From NCBI RefSeq assembly GCF_051842975.1, contig NZ_JBPXRT010000005.1: DNA of 24,000 nucleotides; one strand, given 5' to 3'. This DNA comes from Bacillus sp. Hm123. Its GTDB lineage: Bacteria; Bacillota; Bacilli; Bacillales; Domibacillaceae. Below the pieces are notes generated by a model. The model did no database searches and was not told the DNA's origin. It worked only from the letters and a program-made list of their open reading frames with translations. Positions within the stretch are counted from its first letter, which is position 1. Every line of letters begins with the position of its first letter. Shown in pieces: positions 8,509 through 15,560 of the stretch. The position numbers and the translations under genes are program-made.

Positions 8509-9914
8509 CTAAAATAATGACAATTGATTTTGATCAGGTAGTGAAGCGAGACAGCCGTGATTATCTAAATACTCAATAATGGTTTTCGATACCTTGCCTC
8601 GTTGCTGTAAATCTTCCTTCGAGAGAAATTCTCCTTCTTCACGCGCTTTAACAATATTATAAGCAGCGTTCGTTCCTAAACCTGGAATCGAATTAAACGG
8701 CGGGATAAGAGATTGGCCATCTATCACGAATTGATCGGCACTTGAGCGGTATAAATCCACTTTTTGAAAAGAAAATCCGCGCTCACTCATTTCAAGAGAT
8801 AACTCTAAAACGGTCAGTAAGTTCTTTTCTTTCGGTGAAGCATCGAGTCCTTTCGCATTGATCTCCTCTAGCTTCGATTTAATCGCCGCCGAGCCTCTTA
8901 CCATCGCTTCAATATCAAAATCCTCTGCACGCACAGTAAAATAGGCAGCATAATAAAGTAGCGGTAAATGTACTTTAAAATAAGCAATCCGCACCGCCAT
9001 TAGTACATATGCAGCAGCGTGAGCCTTTGGAAACATGTATTTGATCTTTTTACACGAATCAATGTACCACTCTGGAACTTTTTTATTGCGCATTTCCTCT
9101 TCCATTTCCTCCGTTAGTCCTTTTCCTTTACGAACGGACTCCATAATTTTAAAGGCGAAGGCTGGATCGAGATCCTGGTAAATTAAATACACCATAATAT
9201 CATCACGACAGCCGATTACATCGCTCAATTCACAAATGCCGTTGTGAACCAACTCTTGCGCATTGCCAAGCCAAACGTCCGTCCCATGAGATAATCCAGA
9301 AATCTGTACAAGCTCTGAAAACGTCGTCGGTTTCGTATCTTCAAGCATTTGACGAACGAATCTTGTTCCGAATTCCGGAATGCCAAGCGTTCCCGTTTTA
9401 CACATAATTTGTTCTTCTGTCACACCGAGTGATTCCGTTCCGCTAAAAATTTTCATCACTTCTGGATCATCGGTAGGAATCGTTTTCGGATCAATTCCCG
9501 ATAAATCCTGAAGCATCCGGATCACAGTCGGATCATCGTGTCCAAGAATATCAAGCTTTAATAAGTTGTCATGGATAGAATGGAAGTCAAAGTGGGTCGT
9601 TTTCCATTCCGATTTATCACTATCAGCTGGGTATTGAATCGGTGAAAAATCATAAATATCCATGTAATCAGGAACAACGATAATTCCCCCAGGATGCTGG
9701 CCTGTCGTCCGCTTTACTCCTGTACAGCCTTTTGCTAAACGATCGACTTCCGCTCCACGAATTTGCAAATCATTATCCGCAGCGTAGCCCTTTACATATC
9801 CAAAGGCCGTTTTATCAGCGACGGTACCGATCGTTCCCGCACGATACACATTCTCTTCACCAAACAGTACTTTTGTATAGTTATGCGCTCTCGGTTGATA
9901 CTCACCAGAGAAGT
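8509..9914 (-). CDS. polC: DNA polymerase III PolC-type, exon 2 (C-terminal about 468 aa: rest of palm, fingers, thumb, beta-binding/HhH region)
   Basis: From 9914 the frame reads (N)[43 protein letters not shown]...[27 protein letters not shown]...[20 protein letters not shown]...NQLSLF, collinear with the B. subtilis PolC C-terminus. The first 15 codons of the ORF-track ORF (9915-9960, [15 protein letters not shown]) are intron domain VI sequence. Confidence 0.9.
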
Positions 9915-9917
9915 ATA

Positions 9918-9960
9918 GTGATAGGTAAACCTTTGATATTATCTCTAGCTTTTCCCCCAC
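9918..9960 (-). ncRNA. Group II intron domain VI with a candidate branch-point adenosine (position 9922)
   Basis: GUGGGGG (9960-9954) pairs with CCU(A)UCAC (9925-9918), leaving one bulged A 8 nt upstream of the 3' splice site. That is the canonical lariat branch geometry. Confidence 0.6.
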
Positions 9961-9963
9961 TCC

Positions 9964-9998
9964 ACACCGTGCATGAGGCTTTCACACTCACACGGCGT
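9964..9998 (-). ncRNA. Group II intron domain V (catalytic hairpin)
   Basis: ACGCCGUGU-GAG(U)GU-GAAA-GCCUC-AU-GCACGGUGU. This gives a 9-bp lower helix, a 2-nt AU bulge on the 3' strand, an upper helix and a GAAA tetraloop, matching the consensus GAGCCGUAUGCGAUGAAAGUCGCACGUACGGUUC. The triad position reads CGC, not AGC. Confidence 0.8.
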
Positions 9999-10021
9999 TC
10001 CATCGTTAATTTTGTTGAAGG

Positions 10022-11848
10022 TTATAGGCTAAGCTTTGGATTTCCTACTTCCGTTCTTAGCCTGTTTAGCTTTATTATTGCTTTCTTTTCGAACTTAGCT
10101 AACATTTTTTCGTAATCTTTATTCACAATCGGGTCTTTATTGTGAATAAGCATATGATATTTCTTATTAATAATAAGCAAATTGTCATACTCATCACTTC
10201 CAGCTTGTGCTGTTGGCTTAATATGGTGGCAGATTGCATTATGGGGCGTCAAACGTTCCCCTGTTATACCGCAACATCCTTTTTGAGCCACATATTTGCT
10301 TAAACGGTTGTTTTCATACAATATACTTTTCGCTTTATATATTCCCTTACGAAACATTTCAATTTCACGAACAGACACTTGTTTCAAATCTTTATGAATT
10401 GAGGACCTGTCATTCTCGTTGTAAATCGTAAATTCAGGTTTTCTCTGTCCTCGTATATCATGCCGAATCGCTTCAATAGGATATACCAGCAATCCATTGC
10501 TTTTAAATCTTGGACAACTATAGTCCCCATAAAATTTATCAATGACATTGTTTGTTTCTTTCGTTTTCACGAATATATTTCTAAATATCAATGATTTAAT
10601 ATTCGGATGAACTTGATGTCTTATCTCATTGAAGTCTTGAGATATCCTTGTCGCAATCTTGTAATAGTTATGCAACCCAAGAATATTCGCATTGAAATTC
10701 ATCACTTTTTCTGGGGTAGGACTTTTTCGAAGTTTTACTAACTGATGCCTTATGACCCCTTGCACCTTTTGTTTTGCTTTTGGGTCCATTTTTGAATTTA
10801 CAATATAACCTGTTTTAGCATCTCCCTTTTGAACTGCTCTAAATCGAATACCTAAAAAATCTGTACCGTTTTTACGCAAATTAGTGATTTTACTTTTTTC
10901 TTCACTTATCTCAAGCCCTAATCTTTCTTTGAGCCATTTTTCCACTGCTATTTTAATCTTCCTAGCATTTTCATAAGAGTTTGTGAATATTTTAAAATCA
11001 TCTGCGTATCTAACAAGATACATTGGCTTTAGCCTTGTCTTTTTCAGTGCATCCGTTTTATTTCGTTTCAGTTTATAGGGTACTCTAGTCGGCTTTGTTT
11101 CCCACTGATTAGAAACCCACCAATCTAATTCATTCAGCACTACATTGGTAAGTAGTGGCGATAAAATACCACCTTGTGGAGTCCCTTTTGTAGAAATGCC
11201 TTCACCTGTAATTTCAGCTTTAAGCATCTTTTTAACAATAGATAAAACTTTCTTGTCCCTTATTCCTATCGTCCATAGCTGCCTTATTAGTTTTTTATGA
11301 TTCACGTTATCGAAAAATCCTTTGATATCTACATCAACCACGAAGTGCTGATGACTATGATTGACCATGTGATAACATCTTGCTAGTGCATCATGTGTAC
11401 TTCTTTTTGGTCTAAATCCATAGCTCTGAGGATGAAACCTCGCTTCCACAATCGGTTCAAGCACTTGCAAGAACATTTGTTGTATTAATCTATCTTCAAT
11501 TGTTGGAATACCAAGTGGTCTCATCTTGCCATTTGGCTTCGGAATGAATAATCTCCTAACCGCATGTGGCGAGTAGTTCTCAAGTCTTTTCCTTGTTAGT
11601 CTAACTAATTCATCGGCATCCATTTTATTCAAATGCTTAATCGTATGTCCGTTTGTACCTTTCGTTTTACTGCCCGTATTGCTTTTCAAGTTTCGAAAGG
11701 CTAATAAAATGTTTTCTTCAGAAATAATCAGCTTATAAATGTCTGTAAAATAGCGATCACTTTTGCTCTGTTCATAAAGATTATCGAAAATTGGTTGTAA
11801 GCCAAAATATTCGTTATTTCTTAGCTTTTGAATCATTAAGTCAGCCAA
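10022..11848 (-). CDS. Group II intron-encoded protein: reverse transcriptase + maturase (X/thumb) + DNA-binding + HNH endonuclease domains
   Basis: 608 aa. RT motifs: RRLFIPKPNGKMRPLGIPTIEDRLIQQ, YGFRPKRSTHDAL, VDVDIKGFFDNVNH, TPQGGILSPLLTNVVLNELD, LVRYADDFKIF (YADD catalytic box). X-domain-like: ILGLHNYYKIA. C-terminal HNH: CCGITGERL...HHIKPTAQAGSDEYDNLLIINKKYHMLIH. TTG start preceded by AAAGGAGTG (7-nt spacing). Confidence 0.93.
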   Translation of the reverse strand: MADLMIQKLRNNEYFGLQPIFDNLYEQSKSDRYFTDIYKLIISEENILLAFRNLKSNTGSKTKGTNGHTIKHLNKMDADELVRLTRKRLENYSPHAVRRLFIPKPNGKMRPLGIPTIEDRLIQQMFLQVLEPIVEARFHPQSYGFRPKRSTHDALARCYHMVNHSHQHFVVDVDIKGFFDNVNHKKLIRQLWTIGIRDKKVLSIVKKMLKAEITGEGISTKGTPQGGILSPLLTNVVLNELDWWVSNQWETKPTRVPYKLKRNKTDALKKTRLKPMYLVRYADDFKIFTNSYENARKIKIAVEKWLKERLGLEISEEKSKITNLRKNGTDFLGIRFRAVQKGDAKTGYIVNSKMDPKAKQKVQGVIRHQLVKLRKSPTPEKVMNFNANILGLHNYYKIATRISQDFNEIRHQVHPNIKSLIFRNIFVKTKETNNVIDKFYGDYSCPRFKSNGLLVYPIEAIRHDIRGQRKPEFTIYNENDRSSIHKDLKQVSVREIEMFRKGIYKAKSILYENNRLSKYVAQKGCCGITGERLTPHNAICHHIKPTAQAGSDEYDNLLIINKKYHMLIHNKDPIVNKDYEKMLAKFEKKAIIKLNRLRTEVGNPKLSL

Positions 11849-12580
11849 CTAATCACTCCTTTGCGAAGTTTTCGTTCTCTTTAGTCATACACGAATCTGA
11901 CTTATTGTAGGTTTAGTTTCAACATTAACGACTTGTGCCCTTCCCTCTGAAATGTTTTATCCTCCGACCTATTGAGTATTCAGTCATCAGCGGCATTTCT
12001 TCATCGGTACTACAGCACTACTGCCACTCTCATAAAATGTGTTATAGCAATTTGCCTTTCCACATACCATCGTCATCGAAGTGCAACCTTCTCTATATGT
12101 CGAGAGCTTCACACGTTCCACTATTTCTATCTGTACATATTCCCTTAGGCTCCCCCTAAATTCCGCTGAGCTTGATTGTGCCTGTAACACAATATGGATT
12201 TTCATAACCAAACGCTTACTCATCCACACTCAGAAGTCCTAACATGGACTCCGTAACATTTCTACTACGTGACATTCACGAAAAGTCAGTCGAGGGTTCG
12301 TCCCAGTGATTCTACTGATTCTAACCATAGGAATTTTATAGACACCAGACCTATCATTCACAGAAAGTTAATACCTTCCTTTCCTCGTCTTAAACGTTAG
12401 GGTGAACTTCAGCCTGCTTTAACGGGCTTCAAACGATGTTGATGTTTGCAATATCTCCATCGCTTGCCGTAGCTTCAGTGAGTGCGTTTCAGGACGTTAC
12501 CCCATCATTCCACACTTCGAAATAGCAGTTCTCCTAGCAAATACTAGTGCTTAACCTTTTCAGTTAAGAACGTGTCACAC
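11849..12580 (-). ncRNA. Group II intron ribozyme domains I-III and the 5' part of IV
   Basis: 732 nt between the GUGUG 5' end and the IEP start. No credible coding potential. The 74-aa and 80-aa track ORFs here lack SDs and homology. I did not fold this segment. Confidence 0.7.
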
Positions 12581-15497
12581 TCAAATCAATATCCGGGACT
12601 TTATCCCCTTTAAACCCAAGAAACGTTTCAAATGGGATGTCATGGCCATCTTTTTTATATGGAATTCCGCAAGTTGGACACTCTTTATCAGGTAAGTCAA
12701 AACCAGAACCAACGGAACCATCATTAAAGAATTCCGACTGCTTACATTTCGAACAGACATAATGCGGTGGCAATGGATTGACTTCAGTAATTTCCATCAT
12801 CGTCGCAACGAAGGATGACCCTACCGAACCACGTGAACCAACAAGGTAGCCATCTATCAGTGATTTTTTTACAAGTTTATGTGAAATCAAATAAATAACG
12901 GCAAAACCGTGCCCGATAATACTTTTTAACTCTTTTTCTAAACGGGCCTCTACGATGTCTGGAAGTTCCTCTCCGTATATACTGCGCGCCATGTCATAAC
13001 TCATTTCACGCGTCTCATCATCTGCCCCTTCAATTTTAGGGGTATATAGATCATCCTTAATCGGCTTAATTTCATCTAAACGATCCGCAATTTTATTCGG
13101 GTTAACTACGACGACTTCTTTCGCTTTCTCCTTACCTAAAAAACCGAAAGCATCGAGCATTTCATTCGTTGTTCGAAAATGAACATCCGGCAATTGATGG
13201 CGGTTGAGCGGATTCGCTCCCCCTTGAGAATTGACTAAAATTTTGCGATGAATCTTATCTGTAGGATTTAAATAATGAACATTTCCTGTAGCACAAACAG
13301 GTAGATTCATCTTTTCACCGATCTCGACAATGTTAGAAAGAATGTCTTCAAGTGCATGATCATCACGAACAAGTTCAAGCTCTAGTAAATGCGCATACAC
13401 TTCTTTCGGATGAATTTCTAAGTAATCGTAAAAAGCCGCTTTTTTCTCCGCTTCTTCGCTTCCTTTTTGCATCATGCTCTCAAATACTTCGCCTTTATCG
13501 CAAGCTGAACCGATGATCAAGCCTTCGCGATATTTTTGTAACAACGAACGTGGAATTCGTGGCACACGATAAAAATAATTAATATGAGAAATCGATACTA
13601 ATTTAAACAAGTTTTTTAAGCCGACATCAGTTTGGGCAAGAATCGTACAATGATAAGGACGCGCTCGCTTGTAAGCATCTCCTTCACCCATATGATCGTT
13701 AAATTGATCATGATACGTAATCCCTTTTTCAGCGGCATCTTGAAGCATTTTCAACATTAAATAGCCTGTCGCTTCGGCATCATAAATCGCCCGGTGATGC
13801 TGAGTTAATTCGACATCGAATTTCTTAGCTAACGTATTTAAGCGATGGTTTTTCATACTAGGATATAAAAAACGCGCTAATTCTAACGTATCAATGACCG
13901 GATTTGTTGCCTTTTCAATGTTGTATCGTTCATAACCAGCTTGCAAGAAGCCCATATCAAAGGAAGCGTTATGAGCGACGAAAATCGCATCCGCTGTCCA
14001 TTCTTTAAACTTTTGTAATACCTCTTCCACTTCAGGCGCATTTTCCACTAAATCATCGGTAATTCCAGTTAGGTTAATTGTAGTCGCGGATAACGGATGG
14101 TGTGGATTGGCAAACGATTCAAAGCGATCAATAATCTCTCCATCCTTAATCTTGACACCCGCTAATTCGATAATCGTGTCATAAACAGCCGATAATCCTG
14201 TCGTCTCCACGTCAAAGACGACATACGTTTCATCTGGTAAAAACCGATGAGCGTCATGATAAGCAATCGGTACGCCATCATCAACTAAATTTGCCTCAAG
14301 ACCGTACAATATTTTAATCCCATTTTTCTTTCCGGCACTGTACGCTTCTGGAAAAGATTGAGCGACGGCATGATCGGTAATCGCGATCGCTTTATGGCCC
14401 CATTTACTTGCTTGGGCAACCAGTTCACTTACTGACGTCACGGCATCCATTTGGCTCATTGGTGTATGCAAATGCAGCTCGACTCGCTTTTCATCTTCTG
14501 GCGCTAGATCTTGACGAGTAACTGGAGGAATTTCATTAACGTCATTAGCAATCATCACGAGATCTCGAACAAATGTATCATTCTGAACCGTTCCTCGTGC
14601 TCTTACCCACATTCCTTTTTTCACTCTGTTGAAAAGAGCCGCATCTTCTTTATCCCGAGAAAACATTTTTACTAGCAAGGAATCGGTGTAATCGGTAATT
14701 TTAAAAGTAAGCAATGTTCGACCACTGCGAAGTTCTTTTGTTTCCGCATCAAATACATATCCTTCGATCGCAATCCGGCGCTCTTCATCTTGAATTTCTT
14801 CGAGCTTTTTAAATTCAGCATCGTCTTTGATTTTCAATCCAAGCATTAATGGGCCATCAAATTCCTGCCCTTCTTCTTTGGCACTTGCTTCTCGTTTTTG
14901 CATATCAACAACCGCTTGCATCGCTCGCTCAGCGTCTTCTTTTTGCTTCGCCTCTAAAAATTGTTGAAAAGCTTCATCTTTTTCTGCTTGACTTACTTCA
15001 ACATCAAAAGAAAAAGAAGGGAAGCCATAATTTTGATACACCTGGACGACCCAGTCTCCATACTTATTTTTTAATGCCATCCCTTCCGCTTCATTATTGA
15101 CTGCAACGACAAGCTTATTGCCTTTGATAGCAGGTAATTGCTTCGTTAGTAAAGCAAGCATCGGCGGTGAGATACCTTCTAATTGCTTAATGCATAAGTT
15201 CCAATATTGTCCGATCAACACATCGGACACTTCCGGATTTCTTGCTTTCATTGAAAATGTGACTGTCGCAATTTCTTTAAAAGTTTGCGCTAACTGGTTC
15301 GCAAACAGCTCTAACACTTGACTAGGAACTATTTGCTCCACTAAAAATGAAAAATGCCATCTTCTCTGTTGGCGCTCAACGGTCAGCTTAGCGATTTCTG
15401 CTCCTTCAAAGTGCTTGACGATGGCATCGTCTGTTAAATGTAACTGCTGTAATAGTAATTGAAACCTTTGTCGCTTCCCTTGGGATTCTTCACTCAT
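12581..15497 (-). CDS. polC: DNA polymerase III PolC-type, exon 1 (N-terminal 972 codons + 1 nt: N-domain, OB, PHP, inserted 3'-5' exonuclease, start of palm)
   Basis: [24 protein letters not shown]... is collinear with B. subtilis PolC. It includes [14 protein letters not shown] (PHP), the exonuclease motifs FDVETTGL / [11 protein letters not shown] / [10 protein letters not shown], the Zn-finger region HYVCSKC...CPTCG, and ends ...[14 protein letters not shown] 15497 is preceded by GGAGG at 8 nt. The track start at 15539 (GTG) is an over-extension overlapping the proS terminator. Confidence 0.9.
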
Positions 15498-15526
15498 TTT
15501 TACGCCTCCCAACTTTTTATAATCGG

Positions 15527-15560
15527 CAGAAAAAGGCACCTAAAGCAGGCACCTTTTTCT
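15527..15560 (-). terminator. Candidate Rho-independent terminator after proS, in the polC 5' UTR
   Basis: The minus-strand RNA reads AAAGGUGCC-UGCUUUA-GGUGCCUUU followed by UUCU. It forms 9 bp, including U-G and G-U wobbles that would be C-A mismatches in a plus-strand transcript, so the structure is strand-specific. Confidence 0.4.

Follow-up and report, generated by a model that had tools for sequence, protein, structure and literature searches.

The polC gene of Bacillus sp. Hm123 is interrupted by a group II intron in the DNA that encodes the catalytic Asp-x-Asp motif of this replicative polymerase. The gene lies on the minus strand of a 24,000-nt stretch of contig NZ_JBPXRT010000005.1, which was analyzed as a whole and is referred to here as the window. 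The intron is very probably the resident copy of a site-specific mobile group II intron that homes to the catalytic Asp-Ile-Asp-Leu-Asn DNA. The usual view of bacterial group II introns is that they avoid essential genes.

The tail of exon 1 (window 12602..12581, minus strand) reads AAA GTC CCG GAT ATT GAT TTG A, encoding K-V-P-D-I-D-L and supplying the first base of an Asn codon. The intron begins at 12580 with GTGTG, the bases next after exon 1 being GTGTGACACG, and ends at 9915 with ...CACTAT, its closing letters being ...CCTATCACTAT. Exon 2 resumes at 9914 with AC TTC TCT GGT GAG TAT CAA, completing N-F-S-G-E-Y-Q. The joined exons read K-V-P-D-I-D-L-N-F-S-G-E-Y-Q, identical to the uninterrupted PolC of Geobacillus kaustophilus (3F2B), and the insertion is therefore in phase 1 of the Asn codon, 4 nt past the second Asp codon. 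The open frame at 15539-12564 (minus strand) encodes the PolC N-terminal, OB, PHP, exonuclease and first palm segments, and that at 9960-8509 (minus strand) encodes the remaining palm, the fingers and the HhH domains. The match of exon 1 to 3F2B (E 4e-153) stops exactly at ...PDIDL. An identical exon-intron junction was found in 22 aligned polC introns, so that chance is not an issue for its placement. The genome of Hm123, which is 100% complete, contains one full copy of the intron and one polC region, and with a single polC the host would be reliant on accurate splicing.

The motif at the insertion site was identified by alignment with Escherichia coli Pol III alpha (2HNH), using as query the uninterrupted PolC of a same-genus strain (L102). 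P-D-I-D-L-N-F was found to align with E. coli residues 400-406 (P400-D401-F-D403-V-D405-F); taken alone, this stretch is a weak match (E 1.8), but it lies in collinear order with the rest of the alignment, and the whole-sequence match has an E value of 8e-9. D401, D403 and D555 are the metal-binding active-site aspartates and are absolutely conserved in the C family, while D405 is an additional Asp conserved in DnaE (Timinskas et al., PMC3919608). In PolC, the position of D405 is taken by the split Asn codon. Exon 2 contains the third catalytic Asp, within KLDILG (GAT 9552-9550, minus strand), aligned with E. coli KFD555FLG, and the intron thus divides the catalytic triad between the exons. 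PDIDLNF was invariant at all 109 empty and 22 occupied sites. The original prediction, which had placed the insertion just after a catalytic Asp-x-Asp in phase 1 of an Asn codon, was right to the base in coordinates and joined reading frame, and its reading of PDID as the catalytic motif is confirmed by the alignment to D401/D403 together with the published active-site assignment.

In structure, the element is an ordinary member of the group II introns. Rfam model RF02004 (group-II-D1D4-5) matched with 161 bits against a gathering score of 34.5, over positions 1-201 of 201, and RF00029 (Intron_gpII, domains V-VI) matched with 49.9 bits against a gathering score of 40, full-length and ending exactly at 9915. 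The intron has 5' GUGUG and 3' AU ends, in keeping with the group II consensus (GUGYG and AY), domains V and VI, the D1D4-5 class, and exon-binding sites (EBS1 and EBS2) complementary to the end of the 5' exon. The intron-encoded protein scored 363 bits with TIGR04416 (curated cut-off 300) and carries YADD at residue 281 (10997-11008), as a group II reverse transcriptase/maturase should. Its best solved relative is the 6ME0 maturase, whose intron presumably belongs to subgroup IIB; this relative and the contiguous arrangement of the intron-binding sites (IBS2-IBS1) in the exon suggest a IIB-like label for the polC intron. Subgroups IIA and IIB are told apart by how the first base of the 3' exon is paired (EBS3-IBS3 or delta-delta'). 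At the C-terminus of the protein, the motif CHH..P...N...H..IH is conserved in 11 relatives, and a profile of these C-termini was found to match that of the 6ME0 maturase (4.5e-10) and, in Cas9, a region aligned with the HNH-like motif (3.3e-4). Coordinates of all features are given in Table 1.

When the intron protein was used to search one genome per species, 21 loci were retrieved at 69-94% identity, and at every one the polC exons end in ...PDIDL and start with FSGEYQ, with the same insertion base. The named hosts comprise Bacillus (including B. pacificus), Lysinibacillus, Kurthia, Priestia, Sporosarcina, Mesobacillus and Domibacillus (G018 and G020). Decayed copies escape a protein-based scan, and two were found besides the 21 loci, both at the same base of an intact polC: a 752-nt protein-less intron in genome G055 (L126:767-1518) and a 1291-nt intron with a 122-aa protein remnant in genome G056 (L127:791-2081). 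G055 carries elsewhere a full-length maturase gene, 44% identical, whereas no further maturase gene was found in G056 at E 1e-10, so that the G056 intron may self-splice or use a distant helper. The pattern of exon end plus intron start was detected in 10 of 401 sampled Bacillales (7 of 133 genera), and its reversed control in none. Overall, the occupied phase-1 site was observed in 29 genomes including that of Hm123, from at least seven named genera and six families, a count that may hold duplicates between the 21 named loci and five of the ten pattern matches (G263, G342, G360, G368, G406). The documented range is the Bacillales, at roughly 2% of sampled species. The same-genus genomes G001 and G004 have an uninterrupted polC, and the site in G004 differs from the window flanks at 1 of 45 nt. 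Among 186 PolC genes, none had an open frame longer than 1487 aa, whereas an intein would lengthen the frame by at least about 130 residues; accordingly, no intein was seen in polC, nor any other insertion at this codon. A broad retrohoming range had been predicted, with the target present in many Firmicutes; the breadth holds within the Bacillales, where seven named genera share the site and a horizontal signal is seen, and occupied sites were found only there. The accompanying suggestion, to look for introns or inteins at the same codon, led to introns in other species and to no intein or other insertion among the 186 PolC genes.

The target was compared from -30 to +15 in 22 occupied sites, 69 empty Bacillales sites and 40 empty sites of the wider phylum, the 69 being drawn from both ends of a 121-genome sample, as the 29 PolC genes that matched best and the 40 that matched least. 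All differences were synonymous or in the outermost codons. The 13-residue target peptide was invariant in 69/69 empty Bacillales sites, and PDIDLNF in 40/40 wider-phylum sites. Among 3031 sliding windows along about 3 kb of polC in 29 intron-less Bacillales, the 45-nt target ranks 50th (top 2%), with a nucleotide conservation of 0.875 (median 0.793, maximum 0.897); the single most conserved stretch is the counterpart of an FNKSH stretch (FPKAHAAAY). This alignment, which the original prediction had proposed, agrees with its claim that the target is highly conserved DNA. Its stronger statement, that the host cannot mutate the site, stands for the non-synonymous positions, which are fixed, and fails for about a third of positions, which are synonymous and variable (Leu CTC in two occupied sites). 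The notion that the host cannot escape also needs rewording because the G/U-rich exon-binding sites still pair by wobble: the target is not immutable; rather, the guide is tolerant.

The exon-binding sites were located by covariation. Domain I was aligned for 27 related introns with different targets and scored where at least five consecutive pairs with the exon end occur, which gave two sharp alignment columns. The EBS1 column lies in the hairpin loop GAGUAAG-N-[EBS1]-UAUGAAA and pairs from -1 upstream (-1..-5 or further) in 17 of the 27; the EBS2 column follows GGGUCUAGA and pairs from -7 or -8 upstream in 20 of the 27. Together, EBS1 and EBS2 of the polC intron span -13..-1, GAU AUU GAU UUG A, which encodes Asp-Ile-Asp-Leu and the first base of Asn. 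In the window, EBS2 pairs at 6/6 positions and EBS1 at 6/7. The pairing was tabulated for 24 polC introns, and the EBS1 variants of ten others match their own exons at 7/7 positions, except for L029 (6/7); EBS1 is UUAGGUU in nine of these ten. The protein-less intron of G055 has EBS1 UUAAGUU, which fits its own altered exon (GAC TTA A) at 7/7. Opposite four of the five synonymous positions of -13..-1 the intron has G or U, each pairing with either synonymous alternative. With at most one mismatch, UUAGGUU-type sites pair with 68/69 empty Bacillales targets and 30/40 wider-phylum targets, versus 46/69 and 9/40 for the plain complement of the window's target. Since the exon-binding sites are G/U-rich, wobble pairs can absorb most synonymous change; that this composition is an adaptation rather than a by-product is our inference.

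Some further observations concern these sites. Two occupied loci, L026 (Priestia abyssalis) and L029 (Mesobacillus maritimus PL-B2), have Leu CTC instead of TTG, which loses one EBS1 pair and is accompanied by no compensating change in the intron; TTG is kept in another M. maritimus strain (L035). Three other routes to the exon-binding sites were abandoned. UCAAG (12175-12171), complementary to the last 5 nt of exon 1, was rejected as EBS1 because it is conserved in related introns with unrelated targets and variable among polC introns with a constant target; UCAAG at 12171-12175 is a conserved structural element of this intron class, whatever the target. AAAAUCC (12202-12196) was rejected as EBS2 because a conserved helix has it as its 3' strand. 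Searching for plain complements of IBS1, which is A/U-rich, returned many chance matches and no usable candidate.

The history of the intron differs from that of its host gene. Between the window and B. marasmi, identity at four-fold sites is 0.30 for polC and 0.87 for the intron protein gene; between the window and Lysinibacillus antri, the values are 0.26 and 0.75. In the intron-protein tree, a clade of the window, B. marasmi and L. antri (support 98/97) conflicts with the PolC tree, and a clade of Sporosarcina, Mesobacillus and Bacillus AL-1R (100/100) cuts across well-supported host clades. For the closest pair (window and B. marasmi), the first and last 60-150 nt of the intron are 97-100% identical, whereas the exon flanks are 78-80% identical over 60-150 nt on each side, with third positions at 46-49%. 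Identity thus drops at the exact junctions, so that no flanking tract was co-transferred in this pair, and a step this sharp is that expected of precise insertion without co-conversion of the flanks. The step comes from the B. marasmi pair only, the unaligned end-to-end comparison with L. antri being meaningless owing to indels. Much of the distribution is nevertheless vertical, since parts of the intron-protein tree track the host tree. The overall pattern suggests that the intron has retrohomed repeatedly into new hosts, in addition to being inherited vertically.

Table 1. Features of the interrupted polC gene and its intron in the window (positions are those of the 24,000-nt stretch).
Feature	Position	Strand	Basis
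polC exon 1 (open frame; OB, PHP, exonuclease, first palm part)	12581..15539	minus	Pfam DNA_pol3_a_NI/NII, PHP, RNase_T, DNA_pol3_alpha
Catalytic Asp-x-Asp codons GAT ATT GAT of the C-family palm (E. coli D401/D403)	12585..12593	minus	alignment to 2HNH; PMC3919608
Inferred IBS2 GAUAUU (12593-12588) and IBS1 GAUUUGA (12587-12581)	12581..12593	minus	family-wide covariation
Group II intron, 2666 nt, GUGUG...AU	9915..12580	minus	Rfam RF02004 and RF00029; boundaries identical in 22 species
EBS2 AAUGUC, pairing with -13..-8	12271..12276	minus	covariation, 20/27 related introns
EBS1 UUUGGUU, hairpin loop, pairing with -7..-1	12206..12212	minus	covariation, 17/27 related introns
Intron-encoded protein, 608 aa, reverse transcriptase/maturase in domain IV	10022..11848	minus	TIGR04416, RVT_1
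Putative C-terminal HNH-type nuclease domain of the intron-encoded protein	about 10079-10285	minus	profile search, motif
Ribozyme domains V and VI	9915..10000	minus	Rfam Intron_gpII, 49.9 bits, full-length
polC exon 2 (starts with AC of the Asn codon, then FSGEYQ)	8509..9914	minus	Pfam DNA_pol3_alpha, DNA_pol3_finger, HHH_6

As a mobile element, the intron would read the 13 nt upstream of the insertion point through its RNA, with EBS2 AAUGUC pairing with GAUAUU and EBS1 UUUGGUU with GAUUUGA, while the flanks would presumably be recognized by the intron protein, which would also cleave the second strand, probably by means of its putative HNH-type domain. Because the codons are fixed at the non-synonymous positions, nearly every Bacillales polC presents the same target, and because G or U stands opposite most synonymous positions, wobble could absorb much of the remaining variation; a near-universal target and a tolerant guide would together allow repeated moves between distant Bacillales by retrohoming. 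Elsewhere, the intron would be inherited vertically, its protein gene sometimes being lost. Several observations weigh against this reading, in which splicing and retrohoming activity are predicted from sequence. The EBS1 helix of the window is weak, with a U-U mismatch at -3 and four G-U pairs, and the Pfam HNH model scored 17.1 bits on the intron protein, under its cut-off of 21.4. In the intron-protein tree, Kurthia, Lysinibacillus and the B. cereus group form clusters that agree with the host tree. No occupied site was found among 64 PolC genes of the wider phylum, and megablast found no full-length copy of the intron in plasmid or phage collections. In 4 of the 21 loci (L030, L034, L035, L036), both polC exons are open but the intron-protein frame is interrupted, with 301-488 codons open, which suggests ongoing loss of mobility functions in resident copies.

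The host-congruent clusters could also stem from one ancient insertion in a Bacillales ancestor that was inherited only vertically, was mostly lost and has shown no recent mobility; long residence is also consistent with the decay or loss of the protein gene in six copies. This account is very improbable, as it is already contradicted by silent sites that are far less diverged in the intron protein gene than in polC, by a supported intron-protein clade that unites hosts of different families, and by clean empty sites in same-genus relatives. The abrupt fall in identity at the junctions, with diverged third positions and no co-transferred tract in the closest pair, bears in turn on the possibility that an intron-bearing polC segment was taken up as DNA and recombined homologously, with the conserved flanks as arms and no retrohoming. 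Such transfer seems quite unlikely, given also that the intron protein is intact with YADD and an HNH-like domain, even though few stretches of polC DNA are as conserved as the flanks, the plasmid and phage collections yielded no carrier, and natural transformation is known from species in some of the host groups.

It is unlikely, too, that the intron is kept mainly as a host control device in which splicing efficiency gates full-length PolC and mobility is incidental. About 98% of sampled Bacillales and the close relatives checked do without the intron, and no sign of regulated splicing was seen in the sequence; on the other side stand the division of the catalytic triad between the exons, the persistence of protein-less or decayed copies in intact polC genes, and comparable proposals for the recA and dnaN/RIR introns (PMC2504315; PMC12584367). 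An inactivating chance insertion, with polC a pseudogene or the interruption an assembly artefact, can practically be dismissed: nothing beyond the interruption itself speaks for it, both exons are open and conserved, the only polC of a 100% complete genome is concerned, and recurrence of the exact junction in 24 independently assembled genomes examined at the sequence level already refutes it. Homing of a mobile group II intron to the catalytic codons, combined with vertical descent, is therefore the explanation we prefer.

Related introns raise the possibility of a wider preference for such sites. Tentatively, and with somewhat less than even confidence, the polC intron may be placed in a nuclease-bearing group II lineage of Bacillota that is specialized, like inteins, on the codons of catalytic or invariant motifs. 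The sites seen include PolC D-I-D, the PcrA/AddA-type helicase motif DEYQD, RecJ-like DYDAD, Pol III alpha ...YA/FNKSH and transglycosylase ...AYN. Among the related introns, 16 have an upstream exon that is clearly open, and 15 of these are inserted in phase 1, in about 12 target genes (L037-L093 and the polC, recJ-like and helicase sites); consequently, both bases adjoining the insertion point are non-synonymous. In such a lineage, G/U-rich exon-binding sites would be degenerate guides that tolerate synonymous variation, jumps between Asp-rich motifs that are alike in DNA would open new sites, and protein-less descendants would survive on maturases supplied in trans.

Two further group II introns were observed in the genome of Hm123 itself. 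One is a protein-less intron of 821 nt in a recJ-like gene of the DHH family (G000:C7, about 278221-279041; L004:1128-1948), inserted in phase 1 after ...ILIYGDYDA plus G, within an Asp-rich motif. It shares 90% identity with the polC intron in domains V-VI and may depend on that intron's maturase. The other (G000:C4, 747004-748304; L003) is the 3' part of an element cut by the contig end, with its own diverged reverse transcriptase bearing RYADD and with domains V-VI that are 84% identical to those of the polC intron.

Elsewhere, related introns lie directly after DEYQD in UvrD/PcrA-type and AddA-like helicase genes (L008-L011 and L013, from G002-G006; L015; L037). Over their first 100-200 nt these share 72-81% identity with the polC intron, and the protein of L037 is 48% identical; of five same-genus genomes, four contain such a helicase-gene intron. 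In L009 and L010, the EBS1 region has the sequence found in the AddA-type intron, a hint that the element jumped from one homologous motif to another. In a Lachnospiraceae MAG (L084:3155), a Pol III alpha finger-domain gene is interrupted at ...DFAKYA/FNKSH by an intron whose protein is 41% identical; the PolC counterpart of this site (FPKAHAAAY) is the most conserved polC DNA stretch in the alignment. The cyanobacterial split DnaE intein probably lies within a codon or two of this insertion point. Among more distant relatives (L063, L064, L068, L071, L089, L091, L069), insertions were seen after ...DPxx motifs (DPKG, DPKS, DPKA, DPER, DPDR) in genes read as putative conjugative coupling-protein genes, and in one case after ...AYN in a gene with a lysozyme-like/SLT domain (Pfam). 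At L081, L068 and the recJ-like locus, the 5' exon piece has no Pfam match, and the host gene is named from motifs or from exon 2 only.

How does the polC intron compare with known systems? The polC gene is listed, with radC, mutS and uvrD/rep, among the host genes of group II introns in the Bacillus cereus group (Tourasse and Kolsto, 2008; PMC2504315), that is, the same host gene and the same kind of element. B. pacificus EB422 (L019), a member of this group, has an intron at this very site with a 90% identical protein, and the intron of 2008 is likely identical with the present one. The available part of PMC2504315 was found neither to map the intron to the catalytic DxD codons, nor to follow it outside the B. 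cereus group, nor to analyze exon-binding sites or transfer. The gene-level fact is thus already in print and the novelty is modest; the site-level and comparative picture was not found in the literature. The recA intron of G. kaustophilus and relatives (Chee and Takami, 2005, as cited in PMC2504315) also bears a reverse transcriptase and resides in an essential, conserved gene of DNA metabolism, but its host gene is a different one. Few bacterial group II introns are known in crucial housekeeping genes, namely those of recA, dnaN/RIR and the groEL stop-codon family (PMC12584367), and a survey found such introns enriched near replication and repair genes (PMC7306698).

The dnaN/RIR introns of Trichodesmium erythraeum are likewise located in replication genes, and their protein-less copies are thought to rely on the maturase of a related intron (PMC12584367). 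The protein-less sibling in the recJ-like gene of Hm123 and the protein-less polC intron of G055, beside its 44% identical maturase, resemble this arrangement; the lineage and host phylum differ, and help in trans would here be a conjecture. The group II lineage at termination and initiation codons is also specialized on housekeeping genes and homes site-specifically with very high efficiency, but it carries a large 5' insertion, whereas the polC intron lies within the coding region, at the codons of a catalytic motif, and has no such insertion. A likeness to inteins and homing-endonuclease introns had been proposed from the site alone and is now reinforced. As with DnaE inteins and the group I introns of phage polymerase and nrd genes, invariant catalytic-motif DNA is occupied, the same site is filled in distant hosts and empty in close relatives, and the element tree conflicts with the host tree, consistent with horizontal spread. 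Unlike these elements, group II introns recognize their target largely by RNA base pairing and move by reverse splicing and reverse transcription instead of double-strand break repair; moreover, no flanking co-conversion was seen at the polC intron, and no intein was found at its codon.

The polC intron thus lives in the most constrained codons of a replicative polymerase, where its target is nearly universal in the order and its guide tolerates silent changes. In about 2% of Bacillales species, polC would be annotated automatically as split or truncated. The element crosses family boundaries, yet it can settle and lose its protein gene. As an RNA-guided retroelement with an intein-like choice of site, it provides a natural system open to testing, and the naturally occurring set of guide and target variants may serve in studying how group II introns, and the gene-targeting tools derived from them, handle target variation.

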